54,530 nt of DNA, filler included, from Sphacelaria rigidula (GCA_964200075.2; 5 parts of 5 records of this genome joined end to end with filler, not necessarily neighbours in it); one strand, 5' to 3'. Positions 1 to 54,530 are shown, numbered from the whole stretch's first letter. The notes: generated from the sequence alone by a model not told the origin. Made by a program: numbers and translations.

Positions 1-1348
1 AAAGTTGATCGCTGGTCCAAGGGGTATCCACGCAACTTTTGCGCCATTCCACGTGTCTGGGCTGCGTGTACCTGGGTTGCAACGCTGAAATAAAGCTTCG
101 TCACGAGTCGACTCATTATACTAAAACCAAGTAATTTCCAGACGAATCGTCATTTGTCCGACCCTTGCAATGTATCGAGCCATGTTCCAAGCACTCCGAT
201 ATGGCCCGGAAGGGTATTTCACGACAAAATATCTCTTTGGTACTTCCGCAAGTACCCGAATTCCAGCCGGGATACCGTACAGAACACAGCCTTGGAAGTT
301 TTTGACCAGTTTTGCCTTACCGTATCTCTTCGTTGGTATTGCTTTGCGGACCGGGTCTATTTTCGTCCTCACAGCGAACGCGTACGTTGACTGCACCTTG
401 CGTCGGCTATAGGAGAAGGTAAGTAGACCGACTATTATATCAACTTTGAACATGACGTTTGCGCAGATATACCTGTTTTTTCGGGGAGGGGGGGGGGGGG
501 ATTTCCCCTGTCATTTTAAACTCCTCCCCTTCCCGTGTACGAGTCCACTGTATGGAGGGGACCAAACCATTTCTCCTCCAGTAAAACAAGAAAAAATCGT
601 TTCACAATGCATCAACACTTGGCACTTTGTTGTCGCGGATTGGCTCAGCACTCCCCACACCGCATTGACTTTCAGTCAGGATTTCGTACATCACTGCAAT
701 CCTCATGTTTTCAGCGACGCAAAATAATATACTCCTCAGAAGGAGGCCGTATCTGTCCGGATGATGATCTTCCGCTCCGCCCCGACTAATTTTTATAATA
801 CTAAACCGATTGTATTTTTTTTGTTTCTTGTTAATTTTCCTTTTTTTGTCGTGTAAAGCCCATTAGTAAGCTCACAGTTACGGATCCCTGATGGATCTTG
901 AGTTATCTCTGATCTCGCGAGATCTCGAATTTTTGGGATTCAAAATTTGATCTTCAGCAGGCTTTTGGTGCCAGCACAGCGCGGGGTGTGGGACAGTATG
1001 CTCGCTCACTGATAGGTTGATTGCAAGTGTCGGACGAATAATGATTCGACTACAAATCACTCGGTTTCAATTAATAACGATTCGTCTGAAAGTTACCTGG
1101 TTTTTAGTGTAATGAATTCGTACTATGCCAACCAATCCTCGGGCTGGCTTTGTTTCCTGCGTTGCACCCCAGGTTAAGGTACGCGCAACCCATGCATGTG
1201 AAACGAGCGCATAATTTGCGTAGAGGCGTTTCTGACTCGCGGTTAATTTTCCCCCCCTATTATGTTTTCCTTTCTAGTGAGAAGGCCTCGGATATCGTAG
1301 ATTTTGGTGATTTAAACCATCAATGATCCGCCCCATCCTTGATTGATC

Positions 1349-1429
1349 TTGCTCCGTCTCGAAAGGGATGCGTGGTCAATGGTCAAATGACTAAGGCAAG
1401 CAACAAATGAGTACGCCCCCCCCTCCCCC
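1349..1429 (+). mobile_element. Short poly(C)-tailed retroposon copy with TSD
   Basis: Body CTCCGTCTCGAAAGGGATGCGTGGTCAATGGTCAAATGACTAAGGCAAGCAACAAATGAGTACG + C-run; flanked by CCCCATCCTTGATTGATC at 1331-1348 and 1430-1447. Confidence 0.85.
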
Positions 1430-1465
1430 CCCCATCCTTGATTGATCGATTGATGATTTATATGA

Positions 1466-1640
1466 TTGATTGTCGCACCTCAACTAATCCCCCAGAAGTC
1501 ACGATCCAGCCGTGGTCACTCTCCACATTATAGATATCCCCCAGGAGTCATGATCCAGCCGTGGTCATTATCCACATGATGAACATCTCCCACGAGTCAT
1601 GATCCAGTCGTGGTCATTATCCACATGATAGCTGTACCCG
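1466..1640 (-). repeat. RTE 3'-tail copy with a triplicated 49-bp unit
   Basis: GATCCAG(C/T)CGTGGTCA at 1503, 1552, 1601. Other tail copies at ~3390-3460, 5300-5370, 8100-8170, 10490-10570, 33320-33400, 39610-39680, 40820-40890, 46880-46950, 50420-50490. Confidence 0.75.
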
Positions 1641-2926
1641 AGATAATGAACCAAAATGGAAACACTCGCTGAAGAAGAGTGAAGGAAACAGAAAGGTAGA
1701 ATAGAGTATACTAAGAAAATAAAATAGAAGGGGTGGGGGCGAGAAGTACCAAAACAAAACAAAAGCAGGAAGAAGAGAAGTAGCGCATTAACCCTGTGGG
1801 GACCCTCCCCGTCCGTCCCCGGGCCAGACGCCACATTATTTCAAGCCCTGAGAGAGAAGAAAAGATGAGAACAAAAAAGACCGACGGCAACCATTTCAAC
1901 GGCGGAAGGCGACAGAAGAAATAATCCACCAGCATACGTCATGCGCGCACCAAAAATGTCACCCCGGTGCGGTCAGATTATTTTTGTCGAGTGAGGGACG
2001 CAACGCGTCAAGTTTGTACGAGTTTGTGCACGCGGCCAAGATCAGCTCTCGCGTGCCTGAAGTCTAAATAAACAAAAATCGGCACCACGTGTCTATTTTC
2101 TATATACGGAGTCCCGTGCGGCACTGGGGCATATTTTTTCACGGGTGTGAAAAACACGCCTCGGGCTAATAGTTTTGCGTGAAAGCTGTGAATACTCAAC
2201 CATATGCCGTCAACAAAATAGCACCTCAAAATCGACACTTTTTTTTACTGCCAGTACGTACCAAAAGGAAAGGGTTAAGCTCACTGAGCAGCATGTACTA
2301 CGAGAGCACTGTATCTGTAAGCGCACAAGGGTCTTTTTCAAGTCGTTTTTGAGGTGGCAGATACGGGAAACGTCGGACGTCGGCGATATGCGTCAGTTAG
2401 CTGGGGCACGGTTTAGCGTTGCGTATTTTGTGTGTGCTGTTACTCTGATGGTTGTTCTTGTTTTGCGCACAATATGCGAGTCAAATAGGTCACAGGTCGA
2501 ACGAACAGTGATTCGTGTTGAAGTACAGTAGCTTGGCTTTAGTTTAATCGATTCGTACCGTAAGAATCAATCCTCGGGAGCATTTTTGTCAGTGTTGTAC
2601 TACCGCAGGTTAAGGTACGCGCACCCCGGGCACGTGAAGATATTGGCGCAAAAAAATCGTTTGAGACTTTATTTATCCGCGATCAACTTTTTTTTTTTTT
2701 TGATTGTGTCCGTTTTTCGAGCAACCAGGCTTCGAAAATCTTAGACTGGGCGAGATTTCCGAACCAGCGATGACTCGTCCGACCCCTTTCAACAGTTGCC
2801 GCCGCGTTCGACTCAGGGCTGTTGTTTTGATAGTCGCCGTTCCTTGCCTCCTGTTTTTTGCTTCCTCCTTGAAAGTACCATCACTCACACTATTATATGT
2901 TATCACGAATTCTCACCGCGCCAACC

Positions 2927-3162
2927 ATTGCACGGTTCAGACGAATCATCGCCGGTTCGAATAACCAAATTCACGATTTCTCAGGCCTGATTGCTCGAAA
3001 GAGGGGGGAAAAGTCAACCGCTGGTCAAGCAGGTCTCCACGCAACGCTTGCGCGTACCTGGGTTGCAACGCTGAAAACAAAGCGTAAGGATTGATTCGTA
3101 TCAATCACACTGAAATCAAGTAATTTTCGGATGAATCATAAATTCGTCCGACCCTTGAACCA
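2927..3162. mobile_element. ~250-300-bp MITE family (TIR approximately TTGCAAGGGTCGGACGAAT)
   Basis: Ends ATTCGTCCGACCCTTG; core GCGTACCTGGGTTGCAACGCTGAAA. Other copies at 1-171, ~1020-1330, ~2490-2795, ~40100-40325, 43706-43841, ~51125-51345. Confidence 0.8.
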
Positions 3163-4469
3163 TTGCACACGCCGGGCAGCTCATGAGCTACCTGAATATT
3201 ACTTGTTATTAGTGTACTTACTGATCCGGATCAGCTCATGTGGCTGCTTTTCCCATATTTGTTCCCTGCAGCGCTGGACGCCGACCACGCGTAGTAGCAT
3301 AAATGTAGCGCTTTGACTTCTCGGACCCTGCTGTCACGTAGTTTTTGTTGTCGGATAAGGGATCTGACAGTCCCCTTTTTTCAATTTTCATTGATTGTCG
3401 CACTTTAACTGACCACCCATGGGTCCAGTCGTTGTCGCATGATGGACGTAACCAAGCAAGACTGAAACACTCGTTCAAGAAAACGAAGGAGCAGAAAAAA
3501 TTCAAACAGAACGGCATAGTAGACTATAATAAGACGTTAAAAAAATAAAAACGAGAAAGAAAGAAAGAAAATCAATAGAAGCAAAGCACAGGAAGAGATG
3601 GCCGACCTAAAAAAATAAAAAGAAGAAAAAAGAAGAAAAGGAGCAGGAAAAAAAAATGGAATAAAATGATTCGAAAACAAGAAAAAAATAAGGGATTGAG
3701 GGCAGCATTCGACTAGTTATTTTGGGTATTAATAGCTCATGAGCTGTCCGATGTGTGAACCATTGTAAACGACTTACTGACAGAGGCAAACGCGCGCGCA
3801 CACAGACACATACACAAATCTCCGTAGACCTGCAAGCAATATATATAAATATATATATATATTTATATTTATACCAGTCTATTTCCCGAGTCGTGTCGGG
3901 AACATATTTTCGTTCATGTACCTTTTTTCTCCGTACAGTTGTTTCGTGTGTGTATGTGTGTGTGTTTTCCCTTCAACTGTACCCGTTCTGTGTCAGTTTT
4001 ATGTTTCCGTTTTGTGTATGATACCTTGCGGTACGTCTATGCCTTTTGTGACCGCGGCGGGATCTGTCGCGAACCAGTTCATTTGCGACCATCACGCCGC
4101 GTCTTGGCAAATCATGTTTCGATCGAAAAGGTGCGGTGGGAAACATAAAAATCCGATCTGATAGGTTGTGATTTTCAGCCCAGAATAAGATGTAGATGAA
4201 ATCATGACTTATCACATCGGAATTCTCCTTTTCCACTTCATTTTTTCCGGGGGTCATTTTCTAGGGAGGGTCATTTTCTAGGGGATCAGTAAAAGTTCGA
4301 CAACCAATCAATCAAATCAATCAAATTGTTCTCGATCGAAAAATAATGTGCTACCGTAAGACACGCCCTCAAACTATCAGTCAATTATATCATAACATTG
4401 CGGTAATTTGTTCAACACTCTCTGGGTTGGCTTGGTCCTGTGTGCTTGGTCCCGGCTTTGTAGGGGCGG

Positions 4470-4985
4470 ATCCCTGATGGGTTTGGCGTCGGTTGGCGAT
4501 GACGCTACAAAACACGACACTCACTGCGTACGCTGGGCAACCAGGTTACCGATTTTTTTTCCGCGCTCACGTTTTTTGGCGGTAACCATGACGGTAGCCG
4601 AGCTGGATCATCTTAGGCGGCGTGGGAGAACCTCTACTCCGCGCAAAGGGGATGGTCGTACTATGTAGTGTTTACATGGTGAGGCACCCATGAGGTAGTG
4701 TATGAGCAGCGGCTGTCTCTGGAAGTGGCGATACCAGGAAATGAAGCAACTCATTGGAGGCAGTCATCCAAATGCAAGATAATCAGTACGCTTCGGGCCG
4801 AACAGTCGTGGCAGGATGCAGCTCACCCTTCTTGCGACTCGCCGAACACACCACGGTGCTTCGCGCTTGGTGATCGAGTGCGAGCCTGGTCCGTCGAAAA
4901 CCCGGCGTACTCCGTTCCGGCTTTCTAGAGACGCGAGGTCAATGGTCATATGACTATGGCATGCATGATCATGAGTACACCCCCT
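4470..4985 (+). mobile_element. ~510-bp interspersed element sharing the 3' end of the poly(C) retroposon
   Basis: Aligns with 41520-41935 (+), 46990-47462 (-) and 32781-32850; ends GGTCAATGGTCATATGACTATGGCATGCATGATCATGAGTACACCCCC. Confidence 0.8.
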
Positions 4986-5739
4986 GGGATGGATTATGGG
5001 CTGTTTTCAGCACTACAATAAGTGCGGGTCCCAGAACAATGTGGTCAAATTCACTTTTGTCACAAGTCCAGGTCGCTGTATGTACTAATATCAAGTGATT
5101 GCAAGTATTGTCCGGGGTCCCGGCATAGTGCGGTCATGCCCGGACTGGCAGCCCACCTGCTATGCTGGGACCCCTATTTGTCGTATACCATCCCGTGTAA
5201 ATATCACCCTTGAATGATACAGCTTCGCTGCCCGAAAGGTCATTACCCGGGGGTATTCTTAATGCTATCTGATGTACGTTAAATGGATTGGTTCGTTGTT
5301 CGATTGGTTGTCACACATTAATTGATTCGCGAAGAATCCAGCCGTGATCACAAAACGTCCTGTACCACGAAGTTTTTGTGAAGGGAAACAAACTCGATGA
5401 AGAGAGGGAGGCAACCATTGAAGATGTTAGAAAAAAGGAAATTAACAGACTAAAAACCTGAAAGTAGTAAAGAACCTCCCCTCCCCTCTCCCCCCATGCT
5501 CCGTCTCGAAAGAGATGCGTGATCAACGGGCCAAACGACCATTGATTGATTGATTATCTCACATTAGCTGATTGCAACAATCCAGCCCTTGGTCAGGAGC
5601 TACAAGAAAAGAGCAGAATAAGAAAGGAGGAAAGGGGCAGAAAAAGACAGCAGCAACAGCCACAGAAAGGAAAGAAGGAAGGACGCAGCGACAACAACAG
5701 CAGCAATAACAAAAACAACACACATACAAACACTACGCG

Positions 5740-6362
5740 ATGATTATCTCGCATTACGTAGCTGATTGCAACAATCGAGCTCGTGATCAGAAATGAAAAA
5801 AAATGAGAAAAATGAAAGAAAAATGTAAAATAGAAGAATAGAACGTAGACGAACGAACACAAAAGACAAAAAGACAGAGCCAGGCTCGTTCCCGAGGGGG
5901 GGGGAGCACAGACAAAACAAAAAACAGACGAGGATTCACCTGGAACAAGAGGTCAGCAAATCAGAAACGAGAACCAAACACAAAGCTTTGTATACCTGGC
6001 GTAGGCTATGACTAGTTGGTGTTGGTCCGTGCATCTTGGCCTGCAGCGTTCGCGTGCCGTATCGCTGTCTCTGCGTCATCCTTTTGGCACCAGTCCGCCA
6101 TAAACCTTTCTGCTTCCTGTTCAACACAGCTGTGCCTCTCTACTGCACTCAAGGCTCTAGTAGTCCATCCCTACCATTCGATACCGAACGCCTCCAGGTC
6201 TTCCACTAGGCAGCGGATCCAGTCCTTGTTCCTGCCGTTAACCTTCCGTCATTGCCCCTTTACGACTGTTATTTCACCGAACATGAAGTTTCGGTATCCG
6301 TCCTGGTGACCAGCGTGTGACGAAACCGACGACGTGGAGTCTGCTCTTCCACACCGTCATGA
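5740..6362 (-). mobile_element. 5'-truncated RTE LINE 3' fragment (second subfamily)
   Basis: Minus strand reads TVWKSRLHVVGFVTR..RIPKL/MFGEI..KDWIRCLVEDLEAFGI, an RTE C-terminus with stops and a frameshift. It is followed by a T-rich UTR and tail CTGATCACGAGCT..TTGCAATCAGCTACGT..GAGATAATCATC; the same tail occurs at ~5550-5600 and 35799-35860. Confidence 0.8.
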
Positions 6363-6434
6363 CAGAACGTGGTCTGTGCGATTGACTATGGCAAGCAACA
6401 AACGAGTACCCCCCGCCCCCCCCCCCCGAGAAAC

Positions 6435-6504
6435 GCGGTGCTCCGTCTCGAAAGGCATGCGTGGTCACTGGTCAAACGACTAAGGCAAGCAAAAAATGAG
6501 TACG
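6435..6504 (+). mobile_element. Poly(C)-tailed retroposon copy inserted at the C-tail of an older copy (6370-6427)
   Basis: Same body; flanked by CCCCCGAGAAAC at 6423-6434 and 6505-6516. Confidence 0.85.
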
Positions 6505-6629
6505 CCCCCGAGAAACATCATACTACAGTAAGATATAGTAGAACAAGTACTTACGGATCTCTAGAGAAGTAAATGTTCCGATATTTCATATCGTTCCCTC
6601 TTTTTTTGCGCCACCCCTCGAAAATGCAG

Positions 6630-6790
6630 GGCTGGGCAGACGCCTCCCTCCGCGCTGGACTGCCATACTACCCAAAGCTATTGGTTGGGGTACCTTTTAC
6701 GCCGGCGGGAGGCGCGAGAGTTTTGATAGCTCCGTCGCTAGACAAAAGCACGCAAGAGAGTGTTCGAGTAACGGTGGCCGTGTTTTTAAG
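6630..6790 (+). CDS. Internal exon of FemAB-like (DUF482/PF04339-type) GNAT-family protein
   Basis: Pyrimidine tract + TGCAG acceptor at 6629, AG|GTATGC donor at 6791. Peptide GWADASLRAGLPYYPKLLVGVPFTPAGGARVLI matches the family signature WAxA-x5-YYPKL-x3-PFTP-x2-G-R. Flanking exons not found in this contig. Confidence 0.8.
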
Positions 6791-7123
6791 GTATGCAATA
6801 TGCCGCCGTCCCCCGATGGTTTAGCTGGTGCAGTGGTATCGTACCACACTATGGACGAATGATTTCAATTTCCAAAAAAATGTACTGCGTACAGTATGGA
6901 ATCTATCATCTACGAGTTTTGCAGTAGACGCAATGATCGATACTTCCTGCAGTACACTTTATGGGAAGTAAATATATTGTCATTATCCAGGGTGTGTGTT
7001 GATTGTACCCGTTTAGGGCTCAAGGTGGCAGGGTCGAGCCGAACCCCGTCATTCGTTTCGTTCGCTAGTTCGCTCGCTCGCTCATTTTTTTTTTTCCGAG
7101 CAGAATCTGGTGTCCGTCCTTGA

Positions 7124-7642
7124 ACATGTTAGGGGACGTACGTAACAAGGAATAGACCGACGGGAGATGACGGGGTGTGGTAATAATAGGCTCTCTTCAA
7201 AAATCAGTTTCAACGCCGAAATGGTGCTTTCCATGACGTGAAGTCATGACAAACGACTTTCATATGGACGACCTCATATGCCCTCCGACCTCCCCGAAAC
7301 GTTTTTTGGGGGGGTTCCCGTTTCCCCAAAGGGTAAGGGTATATACGAAAGCACCATTTTCGGGCTAGAAGCGTTGCTTTTTTCCCCCCCGAAATACCGG
7401 AATAGAGGCAAAGTGGGGCTTCCGTACATTCCTTTCAAGGGAGGGGAAGGCGGGAAGCCCCCGAAATTAGGTTCAGGGGGGTAGGGGGGCGTGAGGTTAT
7501 CAACATGAAATGTCATTTGTCATGACTTTAGGTCAGGGAAAAGGCACTGTTTTGGAGTTGGAAACTCATTTTTGATGCTCAACCTCATTTCCGAAGATAG
7601 TTTGTTTGGTGTTGGTGTAGTCCTCGATACATTCCAACATGT
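7124..7642. mobile_element. Foldback/long-TIR element
   Basis: 7195-7300 (CAAAAATCAGTTT..AAGTCATGACAAACGAC..TTCAT) is the diverged reverse complement of 7470-7578; outer ACATGTT/AACATGT. Confidence 0.7.
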
Positions 7643-7761
7643 CGGGCAGGTGTGGGGGGAAGAAGGTGGATTGATTGGTCCGACCTCTTGAGACTATGGA
7701 TTCGCCGGGAGGAAGAGGACGGGTTAAATAAATTAAAGTAAAGCAAAGAAAATGAAAGAAT

Positions 7762-7892
7762 TTATGTATGTATGTATGTATCTATCTATCTATCTACGTA
7801 TGTATGTATGTATGCATGTATGTATGTATGTATTATTACTATTACTACTATTTCGGCACATTAGTCCGATTTATATATATATATATATATAT
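7762..7892. repeat. Compound microsatellite (TATG)n/(TATC)n/(TTA)n/(TA)n
   Basis: Direct reading. Confidence 0.9.
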
Positions 7893-8694
7893 GTTTATGC
7901 GTACTGGTTGCGAGTTTTGCGAAATCTTCTGACGATCCATGATTTGTTACCCGTGTTCTGTTTGTTCGGGGGGATTTTGGCGAAGGTTCCGATGATCCTT
8001 GACACTGTCTGTTGTCATATTCCAACGTGTGAACACGCACTGTTGATTGGTCGATTGATTGATTTGATTGATTGATCTGATTGGTTGATTGGCCGATTGA
8101 TTGACTGTCGCACATGAAGTGATCCACGAGGGACTCAGCCGTGGTCATTATCCACAATGTAGACGTACGTAGAGGAAGTAAAAAAACGGAAGCGAGACGG
8201 GAAACAAGACGGGAGCTCTCGCTAAAGAATGAAGAGAAGAGTGAAGAAAAATCGAGAGGACAAGACCATAATGAGGGAGTGAACTGAGGAAGCAAAAACA
8301 AACCAGAATCAAAATCCAAGAACAAAATATAGAACAAAACAAAAAATGTAAAGAGAAGCACGCAGGGAATGGAACAGAATGAAATGAACTGAACTTAGAA
8401 GTAACAGAACGAAAAACTTCCTGCGTGGACGTGGAAGGGTGTACCCCGAAAGAACAGCGTGAGGTGTAATCCCCGTCAATTCATTCTAAACGCCCACGAG
8501 GAAGCGGAAGTGCTGGAACCGCCATGGCACTATCAAGTGAAGTACCTGGTTGCGCTTCCAGTCTTTGGGACCCCGGGTCGTCGGTTCCGGAGACGTTTTA
8601 CACCCTGGACAATGCGTGGTTAATAGTTGCAGTAGAAAAATGTACTGGGTAAAGTATTGGCCTATTGCAACTTTTGCCGATCCCCGGACAAGAT

Positions 8695-8711
8695 CCTCCG
8701 ACATGAGTACG

Positions 8712-8745
<34 letters not shown>

Positions 8746-8893
8746 AGGCCGACGCCGGCGAACAACAAAAAAAAAAAAAAAACAAACAAAATATAGTGAC
8801 AACACAACCAAANNNNNNNNNNCTTTTTCACTTTTTTCTCCCCCCCCCCCAAACACCCCCCAAACGGAGACCCGCCCCCCCCCCCCCCTCCCC
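8695..8893 (+). mobile_element. Very short poly(C)-tailed retroposon copy (tail region garbled around an N gap)
   Basis: ATGAGTACG + long C-run; flanked by CCCCGGACAAGAT at 8682-8694 and 8894-8906. Confidence 0.6.
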
Positions 8894-9186
8894 CCCCGGA
8901 CAAGATGTGGTTGACAGTTGCAATAGAAAAAAATTGTACCGCATACAGTAGTATAGGCCTACTGCAACTAATGTCGGGCCGATTGTCCAGGGCGTGAAAC
9001 TATGATCGTGGGATGGAAGAAATGAACAAGTTCTAGTGACTCAGTTGAGATCCATGTTGCTCTGCGATGGAGCTTCTGTTTTGCCTGCCTAACGGCACGT
9101 TCCACCGTATATGATAGATTGCTTGATAGGTTTGATTTGTGCGTGTGTTTTCCACATCCTGGAAAACGACAAAGGATTACGTGATC

Positions 9187-9876
9187 AAAAAATGTATTGC
9201 GTACAGTATGGAATATGTTGTCTATTGCAGTAGACGCAATAGTCGGTACTGTACCCAGTACGCTTTTTTACAATGTAATGTATTGTCATTATCCAGGGTT
9301 ATCTGTTGCAATAGACGCAATGTTTGATACTGTACGCAGTACATTTTTTGACAATGATATCAATTGTCATTATCCAGGGTTGTCTATTGCAATAGACGCA
9401 ATAGTCGATACTGTACCCAGTACACTTTTTGACAATGATATCAAATGTCATTATCCAGGGTTGTCTATTGCAATAGACGCAATAGTCGATACTGTACCCA
9501 GTACACTTTTTGACAATGGTATCAATTGTCCTTATCCACGGTTGTCTATTGCAGTAGACGCAATAGTCGATACTGTACCCAGTACACTTTTTTGACAATG
9601 GAATGTAATCGTCGTTATCCAGGGTTGTATATTGCAATAGACGCAACAGTCAATACTGTACGTAGTACACTTTTTTGACAATGGAATGTAATCGTCGTTA
9701 TCCAGGGTTGTATATTACAATAGACGCAATAGTCAATACTGTACGTAGTACACTTTTTTTACAATGCAATGTAATTGTCATTACCCAGGGTTGTATATTG
9801 CAACAGACGCAGTAGTCGATACTGTACGCAGTACACTTTTTGACAAAAGCAATCTGTTGTCATTATCCAGCGTGTG
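9187..9876. repeat. Tandem array of ~8 units of 81-83 bp derived from a MITE arm
   Basis: Anchor TTA(T/C)CCA at 9289, 9370, 9451, 9532, 9615, 9698, 9781, 9863; single-unit relative at 6875-6997. Confidence 0.93.
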
Positions 9877-10375: not shown

Positions 10376-10828
10376 CCAAATATACTCATTTTTTATCATT
10401 TTTTTTCTTTTCCCAGTGTGCTCTCTTTGTCTGTTGTACCTTTTCTGTTTTCTTCACCTTCCTTCAGCGAGTGGTTCAGTTTTGTGTTGTCTTGGGTACG
10501 TCCATCATGTGACCACGGCTGGATCCCTGGGGGGTCAGTTAAAGTGCGGCAAGCCCATCAATCGATCAAACTCAGTATTACAGTGTCCCTAGGGCATTGG
10601 AATGCAAAAATACCCGACTTGGTACCCTAGACCACCTCAACGCCCCACCTGTGATGATATATACTCGCAGCTACATGTGCGATTTTGTTTCTCGTTCTGC
10701 GGTTGGAATTTTTTTCGTAATGATCTCGAGTTACGTTTTTTTTTTTTTTTTTTTTGTTGTTTTTTTTTTCAGTCGATTAGTTGAATCATTTATCGAAGCA
10801 CTTGAACTTGTCCCCCCCGGATTTAGCC

Positions 10829-10928
10829 NNNNNNNNNNNNNNNNNNNNNNNNNNNNNNNNNNNNNNNNNNNNTTAATTAATTAANNNNNNNNNNNNNNNN
10901 NNNNNNNNNNNNNNNNNNNNNNNNNNNN
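10829..10928. other. Artificial 100-bp contig linker (N44-TTAATTAATTAA-N44)
   Basis: 44 N, TTAATTAATTAA at 10873-10884 (stops in all six frames), 44 N. Confidence 0.97.
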
Positions 10929-11004: not shown

Positions 11005-13632
11005 ACCGGGGTAGTTCGAAGATGCTGAAATCAGGACGGAATTCAAACTTGCCTGGATGGAGAGGAAAAGGGCGAGATCAACGGCCAGACTGAGATCATC
11101 TCGAGATGAATTCGCATGGCGCACGTTGCGAGCAGCATGCAAAAAGATCAAAGGGATGATCCAATTTGGGGTGGAGAAATATATGGATGTGTATACTAGA
11201 TAACTAGAGGAGTATACTCGAGCGGGGGGCATGAGAGGATGGTACAAACATCTCGGCGGAGGGTGGAGACTGTCTGGACGACCAATCGAGAGTGAACAGT
11301 GCATTCGAGATGAGGACGGCAATTTACTGAGGGACAGAGGTTTGATCAGTGGGAGATGAGAACGGTACTTTTCCACATTGCTGAACGCCATATCGGCAAC
11401 TATAGACCACACTACCATCGAGAAGACTGCTCAACGACCAATAGCTCTGTCACTAAGAGACTCATCAAGCCCAAGTGAAACTGAAGAAGCTCTGAGAGCT
11501 ATGTCGAATGGCAAAGCAACCGGTCCGGATGGTATTCCTGCTGAAACCCTGAAGCTTGGACTGAACGGGGAGGCGTCGGACATTCTGTGTCACTTCCACG
11601 GCATCGTCTCTGCGGTTTGGACATCTTGCGAGGTGCTGCAAAAATGGAAAGATGTCACCATCAAAGTGCTACACAAAAAACATGATAGCACCCAGTGTAG
11701 TAACTACAGAGGCATTTCACTCGTGGCACATACTGCTCAAGTTCTCCTCCCAATCGTGGCCAACAGGCTCGGTGATTTTTGTGAGGAAACAGATGTCTTC
11801 CCGGAAGAGCAGCGTGGATTTCGGCGTCAAAGATCGACCATATACATGATGTTCGTAGTACGCCGATTCCAGGAGTTGGGACGGGCGAGCGATATCCCAA
11901 TGAACATGTGCTTTATCGGTTTGTAGAAAGCCTATGGTTCTGTAGACCGTACGCTCCTGTGGGAAGTGCTTGCCCGTTTTGGAGTCCCGTCGCGAATGAT
12001 CACGATCATCCGTATGTTTCACGACGGCATGCGAGCTCGAGTACAGCTGGATAGTGGCGAACTATCAGCCTGGCTCGACGTCTGCCAGGGACTCAGACAA
12101 CCAGTCTCTGCTGCTCTTCGATATCTTCGAAGCAGGCTTGGTGGAAGTGATCATCCAGCGGTTTGCGGCGAACCCAGTCATCATCTCAGACTTGGTCTTT
12201 CTAGATGATGCGCCACAAGGTGTCGGTGGTGATCCCGTGGAAGAGACACCACTGGGAAAGGTGCGACGCGCGGTGTGGGAAATGCTTTATGCGGACGACG
12301 CCGGCATAGCCTCGAATACCTCAGAAGTCGTTGCTCGAATGATGGCCGTGATAGCGATAAACTACCACGAATTCGGCCTGATGGTCTCCGAGAGCAAGAC
12401 AGAGTCCATGCGCCTTTGGTCAGTACCCAGTACCACGGAGGCCACCCTGACTATCAAAGCTGCCGGTCAACGGTATAAGCAGACGGGGAAGTTCATCTAC
12501 CTTGGTGTAGCTATCAGCGCGCATGCGAAAATGTCCATCGAAATCAGCCGCCTTATCAGCGCCGCGTGGGTGCGTTTCCGAAATATAGCTACCAACTCTA
12601 CGACCGACCCAACGCCAAGATATCCTTGAAAGTTCGACTGCTTAAAGCGGAGGTGGTAAAACCTCTGTTGTATGGGTATGCCACATGGACGCTACGTTCT
12701 GAGGACTTCGACAGTCTACGCACTGCCCATCGCGAGCTCTTGCTGCGAGCGGTTGGATTCCGCAGGAACGATCGAAATGGCCATACGACTCTTTCGTACA
12801 GACGGTGCTCGAGATGACCAACTGCGAGCGTATCGAGATGACTACCCGCAAACGTCAACTCTGGTTCACGGGAGCCCTTGTCCGGCAGAAGGACACACGC
12901 CTTCCCAAGCTTGTCATGAACGGTCGGCTTTCCACACGACGACCCAAGGAGGTCGGCCGCCCCTCGAAGCAATGGGAGGACACCCTAAAGGAGAACCTAC
13001 GTGCGCTAGGGGCTGTCCCGCACGACGGAGCACGACGAAAGTGGTTCGTCCATGGTGTAGAGGTTAACGATGCATACGATCGGGTCACTGCGGCGAAGAG
13101 CATGGGCAAATGGCATACTGGAATCGAAAAGGGAGCGAAGAGTTTAAGGACACGTGTCGACGCGCGGACAAGCGAGAATCAGACCGCCGTCACAAGCGAG
13201 AGGCTGCTGCGTCGAGGGCTGCCATTTGAAGGATCCTGTCTGCTGATATCGGTTGTTGATTGTGCCCTTAGTCGGTGGCTCTGCGGTGCCCACTGGTGTG
13301 TATCTGTATCTACGCTGCTGCTCTGAATCCCTTGGGATTTTCTCTTTTTTTTTCATCATACTATTTTATTTCATTTTATTGGCTCTGTACTTTCCTTTTC
13401 TTTTCCTTTTTTTGTTTTAGGTCGGCCATTTCTTTCTGCGCTTTGCTTTTGTTGATTTTTTAATATTGTTCTTTTCTGTTACGTTTTAGTATACTATGTC
13501 GTTCTGTTTGATTTTTTCTCTTCTTTTCTTTTCTTTTTCTGTTCCTTCAGTTTTGCTTTTTTTTGGTACGTCTATCATGAGACCACGGCTGGACCCCTGG
13601 GGGGTCAGTTAAAGTGAGACAATAATAAAAAA
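11005..13632 (+). mobile_element. 5'-truncated, decayed RTE-clade LINE (RT domain, C-terminal region, 3' UTR and tail)
   Basis: Motifs [78 protein letters not shown]. In-frame stops (~11201, ~11358, 11924) and frameshifts (~12100, ~12580, ~12800). T-rich 3' UTR ends CCACGGCTGGACCCCTGGGGGGTCAGTTAAAGTGAGACAATAATAAAA. No endonuclease domain seen. Confidence 0.93.
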
Positions 13633-15328
13633 ACAAGAACATCATTCAGTGTGTTCCGGGCGTATTGTTTCTGATTAACTGGGCCCGTTTTGGGGAGGAT
13701 ACCTACAAAAGCGGGGTGAAATTCCCACGAGAGTGCTGTTGAGACACGGTTTAGAGACGATAGCCAGGCGCCCTTTGCTTTCATGATGTCATCGACGTTG
13801 AGGACTTGATGGAAACGTGTGATACCGTTGATTCAAAAACTGGACTTGTCTGAAAGCATGTTGCCTGATTGTGTCCAAGCGCAGCAATTTTGCCACGTCG
13901 ACCACGGGTCATCTGGTGGCCGGATATGGTGGACACGGTCAATGAGAGGGGCTGTTCCGTCGCGTCGTCGGTGTTAAGATGATAGGGCGGGGACTTGGTC
14001 GAGTAGCTGTTGAGAACTTGCTGTGTGTGTCCGGCAGGCAAGTACTTGGGCATGTCGCTTGTATCATGCGAGTTCGTGCAGGGTTTGCATCTGTGCACGG
14101 AGACGCCGGGTTTGGTGCCCTTGCCCTGGAGGTCGCGAGGCAGGTCGGGATAGAGCAGTTTGTTACAAATGGGTTCATCATCCGGTGATAATGGTGATGG
14201 TCCGACTGTCAGGATGTTGAATGGCCTTGTCCGATTGAGGGACAATTTTGTCTTCAAAATTGTTTCGTTGGCTGCCTCGCTGGTGCCTTGGCGGATGGTC
14301 TACAAACTGTTGTAGATCCGAACCCGATCACCCAATTCCCAGTTGGGGCGTTTGTGAATGAGGTTGTAAAGAGCAGTGTTAGATCTCTCAGGGCGCGAAG
14401 CGTTGGTAGCGTGTTGTTCGCGCACGAGGGTAAACGCTTTGCGTTGTCGTGAATTCGGTAGGTCGCGATAGGATATCTGATCCGGATCCAATCCTTGGTG
14501 GCCATCGAACATGTGTCGCTCAAACACCGTGCTGGGCAGCCGAGGGTAACGTCCAAGATGGAGTTCGTTCGGGGAAAGGCCTGTGGCGGCGTTGACCGAG
14601 TCGTTGTAGGACAACATGATGTACGAGAGATGTAGGTCCCGGGCATTTTAGCGGTCATCGACGACCATAGAGAGCATCTGGGCCATGGTATGATGAAGTC
14701 TTTCGGTACCACCGTTACCGTTCGGGTGGTAGGCGCTCGTGGCAATTTCGCGGATGCCTAGGAACTTGTAAAGCTCATCAGAGAGATCTGAGCAAAATTG
14801 CTGACCTTTGTCTGAAAGAAGTCGTTTCGGACAACGTTAGTGCTTGATGTGGTCGTGGACCAATATATCGGCCGTTCCGGCGGCAGTAAAATCTACAGCG
14901 GTTACCGCGTGCATGGACGCGTGGCGGCTGAAGCGGTTAGTGAAGAGGAAGATGTAGGTGTTGCCGCGACTGGTGGTCGATACAGGCCCAACGTGGTGGA
15001 AGGACACAAGGTGACCCGGGGCGTTGGGGAGTCCCATAGAGATGACCGTCCAGCGTACTGTCTGCCGTGAGGGTTTTCGAGCTTGGCATTTGAAGCATCG
15101 CCGGATCCAGAAGCGGGTGGAAATGTCCAGGCCAATCCACCAGTAGAAGCGTTCCAGGAGTGCTAGGGTGCGAGTGACGCCAAGTTGACATGAAAAGTCT
15201 GTGTGACAACATCTCATGAACCAGGGGCGCATCAACAATGGGACATATATGCTCGTTGGTTCATCATTGAGTAGTCGCGCGTGGCCTTCCGTGGTCGAGA
15301 CGGAAATTGCGCCTGTCAAAGGCGTGGG

Positions 15329-15585
15329 GACACTTTCTACGATAACCCCCTCCAAAAAAGTGCCTGGTTTGGGGAGGCAAAGTGTTCACGTAAATCGATG
15401 TGGAAAAACGCCGACCATAACGACCAGTTGGTGATTTCCGCGCTTGGGTTCTTTCTCATCAATGTCGCCAATATGAGGTGCTTCATGCAGCCTGAACCCA
15501 AACATCAGGCGCTATATGGTCATTTGTTTCGTGACACCTTTGGGCTGTTTTTTTTCATGGAGGAGGGGCTATCGTAGAAAGTGTC
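15329..15585. mobile_element. 257-bp MITE (TIR GACACTTTCTACGATA), 4-bp TSD TGGG, nested in Gypsy pol
   Basis: TIRs at 15329-15344 and 15570-15585; TGGG at 15325-15328 and 15586-15589; removing it restores the frame LVRRP-TPLTG. Confidence 0.93.
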
Positions 15586-17771
15586 TGGGGCGACGCACGA
15601 GTAGTTGTACCCCTTCATCCGCAGTGAAAATGGTGCCTTTACGCACGAGTACGTATACGTCAGAGATACCTGGTGATGGCAGTGTGCCAACCGGGGCCAG
15701 AAGAGCAGATGGAAAAGGGACTGGACAGTCAAACTGTGAGTACTGGATGGCTGCGCGACATAAAGATTCCGCGTTTTGTTCGCGAGCCCAATCGCGGTGA
15801 GAGTAGCTGGAGAAAAACTCGCGCAGTTGACCTTCCGCTGAAGAGCCGAACAAACATGGTGGGGTAGGCAGCGGGGAACTAAGCGATGGGGCCGGAATGC
15901 CGACGTCAATATCTGCCCCGGGAGCAGGAGCTGAGTCGTTGCCTCCATGCTCGGGAGCGGTAGATGTTGGTGGCACCGTTAAGGGCGGCGGGGTAGTAGC
16001 AGTGCGCGACGAAGATTGTCCGTGGCGCGTGGTGCACGTGGAAGTAATATTCGCGGAGCGTTGTGTGCTGGTCCGTGGGACCGGTGCTGCGTGGCTCGTG
16101 CAATCTGCAGATGTCATCGGTGGCGGCGGGGAACTCGGGGGGGGGGAGGGGGGGGGGGGGGGGGGGCAACAGACCGGGGGCGCGTGGTGTCGGCGGTGAG
16201 GGGGATGACCGAAGGTGTCTCCGCGNNNNNNNNNNGGCCGGAGAGGAGAGGGGGAGCGGGGGGGGGGGCGACGGGGGGGCGGGGGCGAGGGGGGACGGAG
16301 GGCGGGGGCAACAGACCGGGAGCGCGTGTTGTCGGAGATTAGGTGGATGACCGAAGGTGTCTCCGTGAAGAGCTTCGCGTGAATACCAAAAGAGCGGAAA
16401 TCGACAAGTTCGAAGGTGGTGGGCTTTGACCCACCCAAGACGGCGTCATATGGGACAGGGCGAGATCCTCCCATGTGCATACCAGTGTCTAGGCACTGAA
16501 GGTCGAGGGCAAGAACGGGCGTTGAAAAACGTTTAATAGGGTAAATCCCAGGTTCATCGGGTTCCGTTAAACGACAAGCCGGGCTGGAATCTGCAGCCGT
16601 AGACGGCAGTAGTAGTCCGGAAAGATGATCAGCGTTCCCGTTATTTTTGCCTGAGCGGTGCTCAATGGTATACTGGCATGCTGTTTGAAACTCCAACCCT
16701 CGTTGTACACGCGGGCTGTGTTCGCCAACCTTGGCGAGTTGTTCGAGTGCCCCATAATCCGCGTAAAGCTCAAAGGGCATGTGAAACAGATATTGTCGAA
16801 TGCGCTTCATGGCCCAGGTGATTACCCCGACTTTCAATTCTAGCGGGCTCCAGTTGGACTCGTTGGGCAGGGTTGCGCGGCTAATGTAGAGGATGGGTCG
16901 AACAGAGCCATCAACCTGGGGTTGGTTCAAAATTACTCCAAATCCGTCTGTGCCGGCGTTAGTGTGGAGTTGGAAAAAGCGAAAGCTATCGTGTACTGCT
17001 TCCCAATCAGGAAAATAGTGTGCCAGCTTTTCGGTAAGCGTTTTTAGCGATTCGCCGGTGATATTTTCCATATCGGCGATGAAGGCACACACGGCTGCTT
17101 TCTTGAGTAACTCAGTAAGGGGGCGAACCCGTTTGGATAAATTCGGGAAAAAAATGTGGTAAGACTAGTCCGCCCAATAATGAGCGCAGTTGAAAGTTGT
17201 TGGTTGTCATCGGCAAGTCGGTCATCGCTGTGACTTTGTTTGTATCCGGATGTAGGCCTGATGGCAAAATGGAATGCCCCAGGGAATCCAGGTCAGTCGC
17301 ATCAAGGCGAGCTTTGAATGGAGACAGTTTTAAGTCGCGTGTTCGTATGCGAGGGAGAAATTCTCGTAGAGTGCGGATGTGTGCAATAAGTGAGGCATCG
17401 AAAGCGATAGCGTCATCTAGGTACATGATGATGTGCTTGAGGGCCTCAGTGACACGTCGCATCAAGCGTTGAAAGCATCCCGGAGCAGTGGCAGCGCCTT
17501 GTGGCATTCGAAGCCACTCGTAGAGCCCGGACGAGGTACAAAAGGCCGTAAGTGGGACTGTGTCAGGGTGAATAGCATTCTGGAAAAATCCAGAAGCGAG
17601 GTCGAAGGTGCTGAGTATATGTTTTTTGCCTAAGGAATGGAAGACAACATCAATGCGGGGGATTGAATGTTTACCAACCATAATCAAGCGGTTCAACCGT
17701 TGGTGAATCACGGTTATGTGTGTGTTTCCATCCTTTTTGGGAACGACAACAAATGGCGAGGCCCAAGGAGA

Positions 17772-18028
17772 GAGTGATGCTACGGTAGGTGTGCACAAAT
17801 ATTTTCTGAGGTCAGGATTGTTAGAAGCCTTTTATCTCAAGCAAAACGCGACTTATTCAAATATGTAAAAGTACGCCAGGATTACTACTACAATATGCTA
17901 GGGATATCCCGAATGAATTTGCAAACGGGGATGCCCTGTCCCATACTATTGTGCATCTAGAATCGTGAGGAGCCCCTGAACAAGACAAGATTTCGCGAAA
18001 AACGTGCACCCCTACCGTGACATTGCTC
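17772..18028. mobile_element. 257-bp MITE with GAG...CTC termini and 4-bp TSD GAGA (Sola-like), nested at the start of Gypsy RT
   Basis: Imperfect 25-bp TIR GAGTGATGCTACGGTAGGTGTGCAC vs reverse complement GAGCAATGTCACGGTAGGGGTGCAC; GAGA at 17768-17771 and 18029-18032; removing it restores QDTYS-PWASPF. Confidence 0.88.
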
Positions 18029-21000
18029 GAGAGTAGGTATCTTGTATTAATCCCGCTCCCAAATATGCATCCAAGATGGCATTTACTCTTCTGGTAAGGA
18101 TTGCGTTTGTCCGGTATGATCGGGAAGAGATTAGGGAGACGCCGGGTTGGATTATAACTTTAAAGGGCAGCGTTTTGCAATGCCCAAGATCCGTCTTGGA
18201 TCGAAGAAGTCGGTCTTGGTACTGTGGCAGGACATCGCTGAGTTCTCGGGTAACTGCTGGTTCCCAGCCGGGCCCATGAACGTCAAAATTGATATCACGC
18301 ATGTGTGGCGGCAGTTGGTTCCACATTTGCAAGAAATTGTTCCAAGAATCTGGTGATGGGCGTTGGAGTTCTTCAGCTATAGGATCGGTATTTGACTGGG
18401 CAGGATTCACGGCGTGGACCTGGGGTGGAGTTGTAGAGGGAAGGTCGAGATAGGGTTCGTTGACACAATGGACCGACGCCGTCGGAGATGTTGCGTTTGG
18501 TGCGGCAGGCTCTGTTGCGCACGTCTCGAGTAGGATGTGCATCAGGGGACCAGCGGCGATTCCTAAAATATCGCCGGGTTCCAAGTTAGCATGATCCATA
18601 AGAGGGAGGAGTTGTTGTCCCGCCGAGACAAAATGTTCTATGTCGGCTGGTGCGCCAAGACGGGGTAACGTTTCGGCAAGATAATGACCCGTAAGTGCAG
18701 GCATGCCATTTCGGCGAACTAAGGCAACTTCTAAAAGTTGAGAATCGTCGCAGAGTGTAATACCAGCACTACCGTTGTATCGTAGGTGGTATGTAGCTCT
18801 GGTTGCTTGAGTGTTATTTTGGTAGGCCAGGACGCCGTGGAGTGTACGAGAGTGCTCGAGGTAGAATTCCCCACCAGGCGTGGAGTGTGGTGATGGTGGT
18901 GGAAGCGTGCGGTAGGTTCGTTGATCAGACCGCATATAGCTACCTCTGCCCAGTTGTATGGCATGATGCATGGTGCTGTCGGGGACACTATATACCCAGA
19001 CGGCCAGGCTGGCAGAACAAGTGGTGTTGTGGAAAAAATGTATGCTGAGACGTACGGGTTTTTGTGTCGTCAGGGGTGCAGTAGAGTCACTGAAACCGCC
19101 CCATACTCGAGGTTGAGTGGTGGTTTCGCAAGCTGTAGTAGCAGCGCCAGTCTGTTTCATGTGTTGCCGTGTTGATTCTCGAATTGATATTTGCGGGCTG
19201 CCGCTGTCCAAAAAGGATACGCATTTCGTAGGCGTGGTAGCATGTGGACCAGCGTGGATCGCGACGCGCGTAGTGAAAGTGGTCGGATCCACAGAGACTC
19301 TACCACCGACAAGGTCCGGACCGTGTTCCGCCAAGGTAAATTATTCATGGTTAGCGGGGCTGACAGCAAAAACGAACGGCGGATGATCCGCCGGTGGGTC
19401 AGATTTTTCATCAGAGAAGGGGGTGGACGGTATGTTGTTTCCAGGTGTGGCACGGTTAGAGTGATCATTAGAGATTTCGTAAATGATCACCTGCGGTTGA
19501 CAGAGATCACCGCCCGAGGCGGACCCAGATTTTGCGGTCCTGGAGTCGTCGATTGAAGAAGCAGCGGCGTCATAAATATTTGATCTTGTTCCTTCCGTGA
19601 CAGGACCGCCGAGCTTAAAGTCGTCGCATTTTGGAGAGATTGAGGTCGAGGTTTTTCGCTCGAGAGAGGTGTCCGTGATGATGCACGCGCATCCTTAGGA
19701 GCATGCTTGCGGGGCTTCCTCTTTCGCCGTGACAACGGTTCGTCAAATAAACATCATACCAAGTTTCTTCGGAGATCGGCAAACCATCAAATCTCGCACT
19801 GAATGCATCTCTGTTACTCTCAACATGCATAAGTGAACCGGCGACCGAACCGGGGGTTCATAAGGTGCGAGATGAACTCGAATTCTTGCCGCGAGATCGG
19901 TGGGCGTTCGCGGGAGACACAACCGTGGGGTACGAACGCAGAGGCGAAGAAGGTTCGCCACGTTTGGCGGGCGTTAGGTTGGCCTCTTGGTGTATAAAAG
20001 CATACCGCATTGAATCTACGGAGGCGTAAGGCACCTCACGATACGCCAAGACACCCGGAAACAACAAAGGCATCAGAGCCGGATACTGCTGAGCAACGCT
20101 ATCGCGAACATATGTCTAGTACACTGCGTCGCTTGGTCCGTTCTAGCGTCCGACACCCGTACTACCGGAGACTAAAAGCTCAAATTCACGAAGATAATCC
20201 GCGAAGGGGACATCCGATGCGACAGAAGAAGAACTCAATCTTTAGATGGCGCTCGCTTGGTCGCTCCGGTCGAAGTCACCCACGAAACGCCTTTCCAAAT
20301 CAGCGATTGATGTTGGGCCTGTCCTCCCTCTTGGCACGATTCGGATCCATCTTGGTGAGGATCTGTCAATGATCTGTGTGAGGGAAGCAATAGTGTCGGG
20401 AGAGCGGCGGCTGATAGATATATGCAGTGCTTTATGCAATGGGGTCTGCCAGCCGCACTATCGTTAAGCGCCAGCCGCTTCTGCCAACTGAAGGGTATTG
20501 CGGACGGTACGGCAAACGTATGTGATAGGAGCAGAAGTAAACTGTCCCGAATCTTCGTTATCTGCAGCAGGCATGGTTTCAACACGCCGAAGCTTTTTCA
20601 CGTCCATCTGAATGTACTATTTCTGTATTGGAGCTACTCGAGCAGACTCGACTCAGCTGAAGCTGCTCTTTTACAAGCTTCGGAATGTTCTTTGTCAGCC
20701 GCGGTGGTTGCTAAGGCCCGGGCTGCAGCGAAAGACAATGGACGGTCTGGTGTGTCCGTATCAGATCAACCCGAAATGCGACCCGAAATATCGGCCAACC
20801 CAGGTATCACTTGCCTAGTTGTTGCCAAACCCGAAGGGGGTAGATCTGTGTCAGACTGGTTCAAAGAACACCCGGAAGATACGGAAGAGCTGCCTCCGGT
20901 TTTCTTTCAGTTCGGATTTCGGGTATTGCGGCCCGAGCGGTTCGGTCCCAATCCGCCCGGGGAGGATCCTCCACCACCATGGCGGCGGCGTGAGCGTCCT

Positions 21001-21755
21001 CCATCGTTGTCGTCGCCGTCCCTCCTGTTATTTTTCCTGCCGCGGCAGTCGGCAGTCGTCGGAGTCCACCCTTCTTCATCTTGATCTTCTTCGGCCATGT
21101 CGGCGTCCAGACCAGAGTGGTGGGCGTTGCGTAGTGCCGCAACGAGGTCATGTACCGCCGCGACATACCGAGGTTGGTCTGGTCCGGCGCCGATGGTCAC
21201 GTGTAGGACCAGTGGGCCCAAGGTGAGAGACGTCATGCCGTCGTCGGGGAAGAGACCGCCCTGGGCCACAAACAGACCGACAACCCGATGTACCAGGCTG
21301 GACAGCGATTTCCAGGCATGCTTAGAACAGCGCAAGCGGCTGGGGCTGTAGAATGCGCAGATGTATGCCACAGGGGCCATTCTGGGCATCTACTTCCTGC
21401 TCCCCTTGACTACTGGTATACCTTTTTTTTTCTTTCTTGCATGTCCAGGTCCCCAACCCGAAATCGATCCTTCAACGTTTCGTGGAGTCCGTTGGGCCGT
21501 GCAGATGTGAGTCCATTTCTGCTCTCATGCTACGATAGGAGGGGCGGTTTTTGACTCCGCGAAAAACAGCGGCTAATTGGTGTGTCAGACGACCTATCCT
21601 TTCGTGGTGTGTTTGTGTCTTGGTGAAAACGGTGTAAAGTGGTATGAATGACTGTGCCATCTTGGTAACAAGCGCGTTCGAACAAACGTTGCTGCTTTCT
21701 ACGACGATTTTTGGACGGAATTTCGTGGGAAGAAATGGCCCAGGTTGCCCCCCCC

Positions 21756-21855
21756 NNNNNNNNNNNNNNNNNNNNNNNNNNNNNNNNNNNNNNNNNNNNT
21801 TAATTAATTAANNNNNNNNNNNNNNNNNNNNNNNNNNNNNNNNNNNNNNNNNNNN
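21756..21855. other. Artificial 100-bp contig linker
   Basis: Same structure, core at 21800-21811. Confidence 0.95.
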
Positions 21856-32610: not shown

Positions 32611-32650
<40 letters not shown>

Positions 32651-32680
32651 CCCCCCCCCCCGCCCCCCCCCCCCTCCCCC

Positions 32681-32780
32681 NNNNNNNNNNNNNNNNNNNN
32701 NNNNNNNNNNNNNNNNNNNNNNNNTTAATTAATTAANNNNNNNNNNNNNNNNNNNNNNNNNNNNNNNNNNNNNNNNNNNN
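32681..32780. other. Artificial 100-bp contig linker
   Basis: Same structure, core at 32725-32736. Confidence 0.97.
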
Positions 32781-32987
32781 CGGCTTTGTAGGGATGCGAG
32801 GTCAATGGTCTTATGACTATGGCATGCATGATCATGAGTTCCACCCCCTCACGAACCCGGCGAAAACCTGGCGTGCTCCATGCCGGCGTCTTAGCGATGC
32901 GAGGTCTATGATCTTCTGACTCGGGCATGCAAACTCACGAGTACAGCTCTGTCATCCACTTTGGGATACTTCCATTACTCGCTGCAG

Positions 32988-54520: not shown

Positions 54521-54530
54521 GACGTTGGGG

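Follow-up and report, generated by a model that had tools for sequence, protein, structure and literature searches.

A short C-tailed repeat in Sphacelaria rigidula is probably the 3' end of an algal LINE that inserts at CCCC targets

Mammalian L1 retrotransposons nick their targets at TTTT/AA and their target-site duplications start with A, and in the insect R1 clade Waldo, Mino, Kibi and Koshi are microsatellite-tailed and -targeting long interspersed nuclear elements (LINEs) which need long repeat arrays. A/T trinucleotide tails and short untranslated regions (UTRs) typify the RTE clade, and R2-type enzymes are known to leave untemplated bases at the 3' junction. Here we describe a short repeat followed by a run of C in a 54,530-nt stretch of DNA from Sphacelaria rigidula (GCA_964200075.2; referred to below as the window), and consider it very likely that this repeat is the 3' end of an apurinic endonuclease (APE)-type LINE of the alga, a retrotransposon without long terminal repeats (LTRs), which has the C-run as its tail and CCCC as its target. 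The window is eukaryotic and retroelement-rich and consists of five ~10.8-kb pieces joined by linkers (N44-TTAATTAATTAA-N44 at 10829–10928, 21756–21855, 32681–32780 and 43606–43705). It should be noted that a common genomic neighbourhood is not implied for features on separate pieces, and that piece ends cut elements at 32781 and 54530.

For RTE-clade LINEs a correlation has been reported between the tail repeat and the base with which the duplication begins, together with the proposal that the tail steers the choice of nick and/or primes via base pairing (PMC6007223). The tails given in the relevant part of that study are (GTT)n, (CAA)n, (AT)n, (A)n and T stretches, with an overlap of 1–2 nt, and none of those given there is (C)n. 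A 2025 paper on the transposable elements of Ectocarpus (PMC12477816) reports CRE, RTE, RTE-X and unclassified LINEs, in passages which do not mention tails, and describes RTEX-1/2_Ec32 together with the ~600-bp RTEX-N1_Ec32 as a short partner sharing their 3' end. Stringent-type pairs of LINEs and short interspersed nuclear elements (SINEs) of the L2 type from zebrafish and eel have a conserved 3' stem-loop (PMC4176376). We found no printed description of a (C)n-tailed LINE in what was a weak search of the literature, as 'poly(C)' is unsearchable as written; in the passages concerned, poly-C refers to tracts inside L1 3' UTRs (PMC5381506) or to the terminal repeat of a DNA transposon (PMC9942856). 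There is a substantial chance that curated brown-algal libraries already contain the C-tailed LINE without comment.

The copies found in the window are listed in Table 1. Four pairs of direct repeats had been reported in the first-pass annotation, which was made from the sequence alone, and all four are exact, letter for letter. The duplications are 18, 12, 13 and at least 10 nt long and CCCC stands at the start of every one of them, in agreement with the earlier claim of at least four C at each start. The further claim of a fixed 3' end combined with duplications of variable length holds as well, with ATGAGTACG common to the three clean copies, the remnant at 8703–8711 and all three of the parental elements described below. 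The short copies are unit-length mini-copies of 62–70 nt. Tails in the window, the remnant included, range from 5 to 34 C, and the terminal 21-mer of the body occurs four times in the window at no more than three mismatches (0.01 expected by chance; none of 100 shuffles gave four). Two of the three resolvable targets are exactly four C (gCCCCa and tCCCCg), so that a long homopolymer is not required.

Copy 2 was inserted where the tail of the older copy at 6341–6427 meets its flank, giving a head-to-tail pair in which the C's of the copy 2 tail are indistinguishable from those of its duplication. The third case is composite: the insert consists, in order, of 8 nt of no assigned origin, ATGAGTACG (8703–8711), C34 and ~150 nt of low-complexity sequence, and it also holds an N10 assembly gap (8813–8822) and a second C-run away from the canonical 3' end. 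With just 9 nt of body and a gap inside it, the interior is not interpretable. The duplication is real although the insert is composite, being identical at 13 of 13 positions inside an ~80-nt repeat array whose neighbouring unit differs at those bases. This insertion (8682–8906) is hosted by one unit of an 81–83-bp tandem repeat, for which there is an array at 9217–9860 and related units at 8603–8960, 6914–6993 and 47597–47664.

Table 1. Positions of the C-tailed copies, their duplications and related 3' modules in the window.
Feature	Position	Strand	Remarks
Copy 1, 5' duplication	1331–1348	+	CCCCATCCTTGATTGATC, 18 nt; identical to 1430–1447
Copy 1, body	1350–1415	+	66 nt; preceded by one T; ends ATGAGTACG
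Copy 1, stop TGA	1408–1410	+	followed by the 5-nt 3' UTR GTACG
Copy 1, tail	1416–1429	+	C8 T C5; merges into the CCCC of the 3' duplication
Copy 1, 3' duplication	1430–1447	+	CCCCATCCTTGATTGATC
~490-nt non-coding relative, older	4500–4984	+	part in common with the LINE is the last ~70 nt (3' module); short tail ACCCCC
Copy lacking its 3' end	5490–5541	+	starts at the common TGCTCC, directly after a C-rich run; 86% identity over 43 nt (blastn)
Older diverged copy	6341–6427	+	body to ~6409; tail C5 G C12; 3' end reads ACGAGTAC
Copy 2, duplication	6423–6434 and 6505–6516	+	CCCCCGAGAAAC
Copy 2, body	~6436–6504	+	94% identical to copy 1 (blastn)
Third case, duplication	8682–8694 and 8894–8906	+	CCCCGGACAAGAT, 13 nt; insert 8695–8893
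Two long-family 3' modules	32781–32849 (cut by piece boundary) and 32857–32945	+	head-to-tail; sequence match
Decayed 3' module	35519–35587	−	C-rich tail remnant
~490-nt relative, second copy	41523–41927	+	81% identical to first copy
~490-nt relative, third copy	47002–47440	−	78% identical
Copy 4, duplication	54521–54530 and 54442–54451	−	CCCCAACGTC; cut at the window end, maybe longer
Copy 4, body	54460–54520	−	97% identical to copy 1 (blastn)
Copy 4, tail	54452–54459	−	C8; reads G on the + strand

Parental elements were found outside the window. A degenerate 3'-module pattern run against metagenome contigs gave three loci, L001, L002 and L003 (the last was rejected as a parent element, being a chance match to the pattern), and a protein alignment (A3) scanned against prokaryote genome contigs gave 29 loci, evidently on mis-binned eukaryotic contigs, among which L004 was found; viral contigs gave no matches with the DNA pattern and none that were confirmed with the protein alignment. 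The parent element is ~5 kb long and has one open reading frame (ORF) on the element strand, of 1426 aa in L002 and of 1253 aa in L001 where it is open at the contig end, which encodes an endonuclease (Exo_endo_phos, the APE domain; E = 6.7e-13 in L002 and 3.1e-11 in L001), a reverse transcriptase (RVT_1; E = 1.1e-30 and 7.7e-33, respectively) and a C-terminal Cys-His motif, CPCG...H....C, read from the translation of both. L004 is 95.5% identical to L001 and 78.5% to L002 in DNA over 4.9 kb and has the same terminal sequence; no copy other than L004 itself was found in its contig record. No further ORF of at least 80 aa was found on the element strand in the 0.7 kb upstream in L002, and no separate ORF1 in the 0.7–0.9 kb of upstream sequence available, the 5' ends lying at or near contig ends. 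The best solved-structure match of the LINE protein is L1 ORF2p (E = 3e-22).

The L001 and L002 ORFs cross the entire 67-nt body and stop at the TGA of ...AAATGAGTACG, which is followed by 5 nt and then by the C-run (C8 in L001, C10 in L002 and C13 in L004). The body therefore consists of the last 19 codons of the ORF, the stop and a 5-nt 3' UTR, and the direction of the ORF shows the C-run to be 3'-terminal on the sense strand. Positions 1350–1415 of the window are identical to the last 66 nt of L001, residues 1235–1253 of the L001 ORF match 1351–1407 at 100% over 19 aa (tblastn), and 556 assembled contigs from one public run (X1) that diverge from the window before 1350 have as their consensus the LINE sequence found upstream of the body; by these three measures the window copies and the ORF-bearing copies are the same element. 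An N-terminal APE domain and a reverse transcriptase in one ORF, a fixed 3' end, duplications of variable length and no LTR or terminal inverted repeat (TIR) are what is found in an APE-type LINE. The first-pass annotation had predicted an autonomous partner with endonuclease and reverse transcriptase, and L001, L002 and L004, with the same terminal 67 nt followed by C, are such elements; its placing of the C-run at the 3' end is now fixed by the ORF, and the possibility it had raised that the body is a fragment of an LTR or TIR is answered by a body that is identical to, and in frame with, the end of a LINE ORF. What did not survive is its view of the ~70 nt as the body of a separate retroposon, as this is instead the end of the LINE coding sequence. 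We note that L001 and L002 have a second, out-of-frame terminal motif (AACGTAATGAG...) ~110 nt upstream of the 3' end; a duplication of the terminus may have given rise to the last ~37 codons.

In a homology search with residues 230–1330 of the L002 ORF, 382 of 5086 candidate proteins had E ≤ 1e-3. Those closest among the named ones come from Ectocarpus sp. CCAP 1310/34, where they are entered as unnamed protein products (57% identity over 78% of the queried region and 50% over 64%), which indicates that the LINE family lives in brown algae, and an Ectocarpus fused gene model is 68% identical over 33% with a C-terminus nearly the same as that of the C-tailed LINE. In an Ectocarpus gene model (P0039) a Gypsy part is fused with a C-tailed LINE end. 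A more distant relative, with no copy of the 3' module nearby, lies at 21352–21516 (− strand) in the window: a coding fragment of ~55 aa with 42–46% identity to the C-terminal third of the LINE protein.

A related lineage with different tails allows the C-tailed LINE to be compared with a close counterpart. A 16-Mb record (G002) contains many LINE loci with proteins that are 35–59% identical to that of L002, in which the TGA within the same ATGAGTA motif terminates the ORF and (ATT)n or (ATTT)n follows, and in which the same 3' hairpin is kept. Searching this record with the 3' module gave 44 matches at 30 loci, with the end motif in 29 of them; 24 of these 29 tails start with ATTA, ATTT, TTTA or TTAT, 20 have A or T at each of the first six bases, and none starts with CCC. 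Seven duplications of 13–18 nt were found there, starting with AATT, ATTA, TAGT, TTTT, TTTA, ACTA and TACT, that is, with A or T in every case. Tail and duplication start thus change together between the two lineages. G002 is labelled as a bacterial metagenome-assembled genome and yet bears dozens of eukaryotic LINE copies on contigs of up to 2.7 Mb, and is probably eukaryotic DNA filed as a prokaryote bin; the loci concerned are L005–L032 and L034–L063, and tandem arrays of the LINE 3' end also occur in this record (L062).

The 3' end of the element is constrained. L001 and L002 are 79% identical overall and 94% identical over the last 100 aligned columns, with other 100-column windows at 0.52–0.89, and relatives at ~40% protein identity still end in ...GCVVNG..AMAA encoded by a conserved TGCGTGGTCAATGG block. 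An alignment of 15 diverse 3' ends was examined for a hairpin, with slid-partner and 500-shuffle controls, and 89% of cells pair in comparison with 24–42% for slid partners. The inner stem of the C-tailed group, TGGTC/GACTA, corresponds to TGGCG/CGCTA in the related lineage and to TGGCA/TGCTA in L006. In the structure as a whole two pairs are changed on both sides (11 cells), and the covariation score was reached in none of the 500 shuffles. This conserved stem-loop, formed by the codons for ...CVVNG..., falls within the final ~45 coding nucleotides and suggests recognition that is sequence-specific (stringent) rather than by the tail only as in L1.

We propose that insertion proceeds by target-primed reverse transcription, for which the nick site, the primer pairing and the recognition of the hairpin are inferred. 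The endonuclease would nick the bottom strand just 3' of GGGG, and the freed 3' OH, ending in G, would pair with the C tract of the RNA and prime the cDNA, with the reverse transcriptase recognising the conserved stem-loop; a second nick 10–18 nt away would yield the duplication, which would then start with CCCC. Tails would attract new copies and form head-to-tail arrays, because each tail is a G-run on the bottom strand, and this would give the head-to-tail pairs at 6341–6516 and 32781–32945 and the many tail-to-head joints seen in reads. The presence of CCCC at the target favours a C tract that is templated and pairs with the primer over one that is added by the enzyme. The earlier suggestion that C/G homopolymers are primed on their nicked G-strand can be retained in part: CCCC in four of four duplications, and an A/T-tailed lineage with A/T starts, are as pairing predicts, but the homopolymers need not be long, given the four C in two of the three resolvable targets.

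Reads of the host alga show extremely high abundance of the element. The first 8.8 kb of the window was found in eight of ten listed public runs, spanning three studies, and contigs of four public runs were placed on positions 1–8800 and their depth, breaks and joints tabulated. Summed contig depth reached 4.5 million in bin 1177–1470 and 9.0 million in bin 4705–4998, compared with ~54–78 per single contig in unique stretches; summed contig depth is not a copy number, and the contrast with the unique stretches is one of four to five orders of magnitude. Of the X1 contigs, 345 run on past 1433 and 580 past 4984, with a consensus of C's and then unrelated sequence. Tail-to-head joints from 4984 to 1350 were found in 65, 52 and 44 contigs of runs X1, X3 and X4 and those from 1423 to 1350 in 35, 26 and 13, and equivalent joints reach 6436 and 5490, this being the best-supported class among the joints listed (the best 15 of 2665). 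Joints between opposite strands through C-runs (1423 to 4984) may be graph artefacts, as a long C-run and its complement share one node. No empty sites were found in the contigs on 1–8800, which end 24 nt inside the element and thus below the bridging rule.

Among the systems outlined at the start, RTE and RTE-X are probably like the C-tailed LINE in having a single ORF with APE and reverse transcriptase, and resemble it in almost no 3' UTR, a simple-repeat tail, a duplication start that matches it and non-autonomous partners sharing the 3' end alone, a role played here by the 67-nt copies and the ~490-nt family. The host lineage is in keeping with this, the nearest named proteins being from Ectocarpus. 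What is probably a single ORF, a UTR of 5 nt and, in the related lineage, tails of A/T trinucleotides suggest putative membership of RTE/RTE-X, and we note that Atlas and PDB searches of the LINE protein returned no clade label. The C homopolymer with its four-base match to the duplication and the ORF of more than 1400 aa with a C-terminal Cys-His motif are unlike the RTE/RTE-X examples. Mammalian L1, Alu and processed pseudogenes also have a homopolymer tail complementary to the nicked primer strand, and L1 shows variable duplications (~7–20 nt) and new copies that land in old tails. The C-tailed LINE differs in having C rather than A, so that its tail cannot derive from polyadenylation, and in having no separate ORF1 in the upstream sequence seen; C tails in all three parents and the missing ORF1 do not fit the L1 clade, and the CPCG...H....C motif is present. 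Tail repeat and target repeat are also the same in Waldo, Mino, Kibi and Koshi, which likewise pile up in arrays, whereas four C suffice in two of three resolvable targets here. The zebrafish and eel L2-type pairs resemble our element in a terminal stem-loop common to the LINE and its short partners, but in the C-tailed LINE the stem-loop lies inside the coding sequence and not in the 3' UTR.

Several observations weigh against reading the repeat as the end of a LINE which is C-tailed and targets CCCC. The CCCC rule is drawn from three clean duplications and one composite, and no duplications were found for the older copy at 6341 or the long-family copies, nor for L001, L002 and L004, whose 5' ends are off the contigs or ill-resolved. 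The C tract is known from genomic DNA copies. Runs of at least 6 C were scanned on both strands (61 runs), and three have CCC plus at least five downstream bases repeated within 1 kb upstream, these being three of the sites already annotated (the fourth, with five C, lies below the scan cut-off); the other 58 have no duplication, so the element does not account for all C-runs, and homopolymers of at least 7 exceed the shuffled expectation for every base (A 30, C 29, G 17 and T 47, where shuffles average 2–4). The aligned 3' ends are related and the hairpin covariation hence represents few independent events, perhaps two or three changes and not eleven, and the folding energy of the body is no better than that of shuffled sequence (z = −0.10). 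Contigs of X1, X3 and X4 enter the element by 24 nt at junctions while the bridging rule needs 31 letters. Plain 5' truncation does not account for the clustered 5' ends of the short copies. The long C/G runs at 32612–32680, 42133–42287, 49240–49255 and 16137–16166 have no recognisable element or duplication, and we rejected orphan C-runs as tail-only insertions, having found no duplications at them.

The LINE might be the same and the C-run lie outside its RNA template, with the reverse transcriptase extending the nicked primer by untemplated G's before engaging the RNA at ...GTACG. Tail length does vary widely (5–34 C in the window copies and 8–13 in the three parents), and the C tract is seen in genomic DNA. 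We nevertheless find this unlikely, since it predicts neither the CCCC-starting targets in four of four duplications nor that in the related lineage duplications starting with A or T accompany A/T tails, and since a parental genomic C-run would enter the RNA by read-through transcription. It is far less probable still that the C-runs and duplications stem from assembly or sequencing errors such as two-colour poly-G calls or homopolymer collapse. Three of the four N10 gaps do adjoin long C/G runs (8813–8822 at C34, 16226–16235 at G19 and 42187–42196 at C26), long C/G runs seem to break the host assembly, and the opposite-strand joints at 1423 to 4984 could be graph artefacts, but the same 3' end and C-run occur in four independent assemblies (the window, L001, L002 and L004) and in contigs from three studies, every run reads C in the sense direction of the ORF, and short tails of 5–13 C lie inside exact duplications of 10–18 nt, which nearly refutes an artefact. 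We give equally little credence to a SINE derived from tRNA, 5S or 7SL, to a miniature inverted-repeat transposable element, or to an LTR or TIR fragment: when viewed alone the repeat is short, abundant and non-coding, as such elements are, but the body shares both reading frame and sequence with the last part of a LINE ORF, which refutes them, the window contains no tRNA genes and no Rfam matches at the gathering score, no small-RNA-derived head or pol III promoter was found, and variable duplications of 10–18 nt are unlike the products of a transposase.

The origin of the 62–70-nt copies is more evenly balanced. They might form a discrete tiny non-autonomous family, with their own RNA of fixed 5' end, that is mobilised in trans by the parent LINE through the retained 3' module, and we put the chances of this at about even. 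Four short copies start within ~8 nt of each other (1350, 5490, ~6436–6439 and 54520–54522, at TGCTCC), the older copy starts near 6341 as judged by eye, and the best-supported read joints all run from a tail to 1350–1352 or to the equivalents 6436 and 5490. The clustering also qualifies the earlier claim that 5' ends vary, for which the 9-nt remnant in the 8695–8893 insert speaks and the four short copies do not. Such 5' ends near −67 suggest either a discrete small template or a strong enzyme stop, and the picture of a discrete family would also arise if the reverse transcriptase stopped strongly on reaching the 5' side of the structured module. No promoter, tRNA-like head or other small-RNA head was found for the copies, and the joints, as the best 15 of 2665, do not capture the full distribution of 5' ends.

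The ~490-nt non-coding family shares the 3' module with the LINE (Table 1). We rejected it as a coding LINE end, with no tblastn match at 1e-4 among 120 listed homologues, and rejected the 3' flank of L004 as its head, for which blastn was not significant. Rfam gave no matches at E ≤ 10 for 4400–5050, and a hammerhead or other ribozyme in the body was discarded as there was no Rfam match. Other retroelements in the window include a second, decayed LINE family at 11360–13620 (+ strand) with broken reverse transcriptase frames (GPDGIP..., YADD), which ends in ...GACCACGGCTGGA.CCCTGGGGGGTCAGTTAAAGT without a C tail and has further truncated 3' ends at 10450–10545, 39570–39665 and 50378–50473 and, reverse-complemented, near 1490–1560 and 3385–3455. 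There is also an LTR-type (Gypsy-type) retrotransposon at ~13832–19340 (− strand; RVT_1 and RT_RNaseH), the protein of which is 38–47% identical to the Gypsy part of P0039.

Taken as a whole, these results are consistent with the tentative view, which we hold with somewhat less than even confidence, that a brown-algal LINE lineage has changed its tail and target as a pair, with a C homopolymer primed by a four-G end in this lineage and an A/T-rich microsatellite in its close relative, and that what it chiefly amplifies is a mini-retroposon of ~67 nt, comprising 19 terminal codons, the stop and a 5-nt UTR, which has reached very high copy number, uses its tails to build head-to-tail arrays and is a source of poly(C)/poly(G) tracts throughout the genome, none of this having yet been described in print. 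The two lineages, with the same hairpin and stop motif and with (C)n or (ATT)n tails, offer a natural comparison for how a LINE chooses the start of reverse transcription. Duplication starts that match differing tails under a shared 3' module argue that tail–primer pairing, or co-evolved nicking, sets the insertion site, and, as polyadenylation cannot produce a C tail, either the template carries it or the enzyme makes it. An element of ~67 nt at very high copy number is easily missed by repeat annotation, and the C-runs that it leaves probably contribute to assembly gaps and to tracts prone to G-quadruplex or i-motif formation in these algal genomes.

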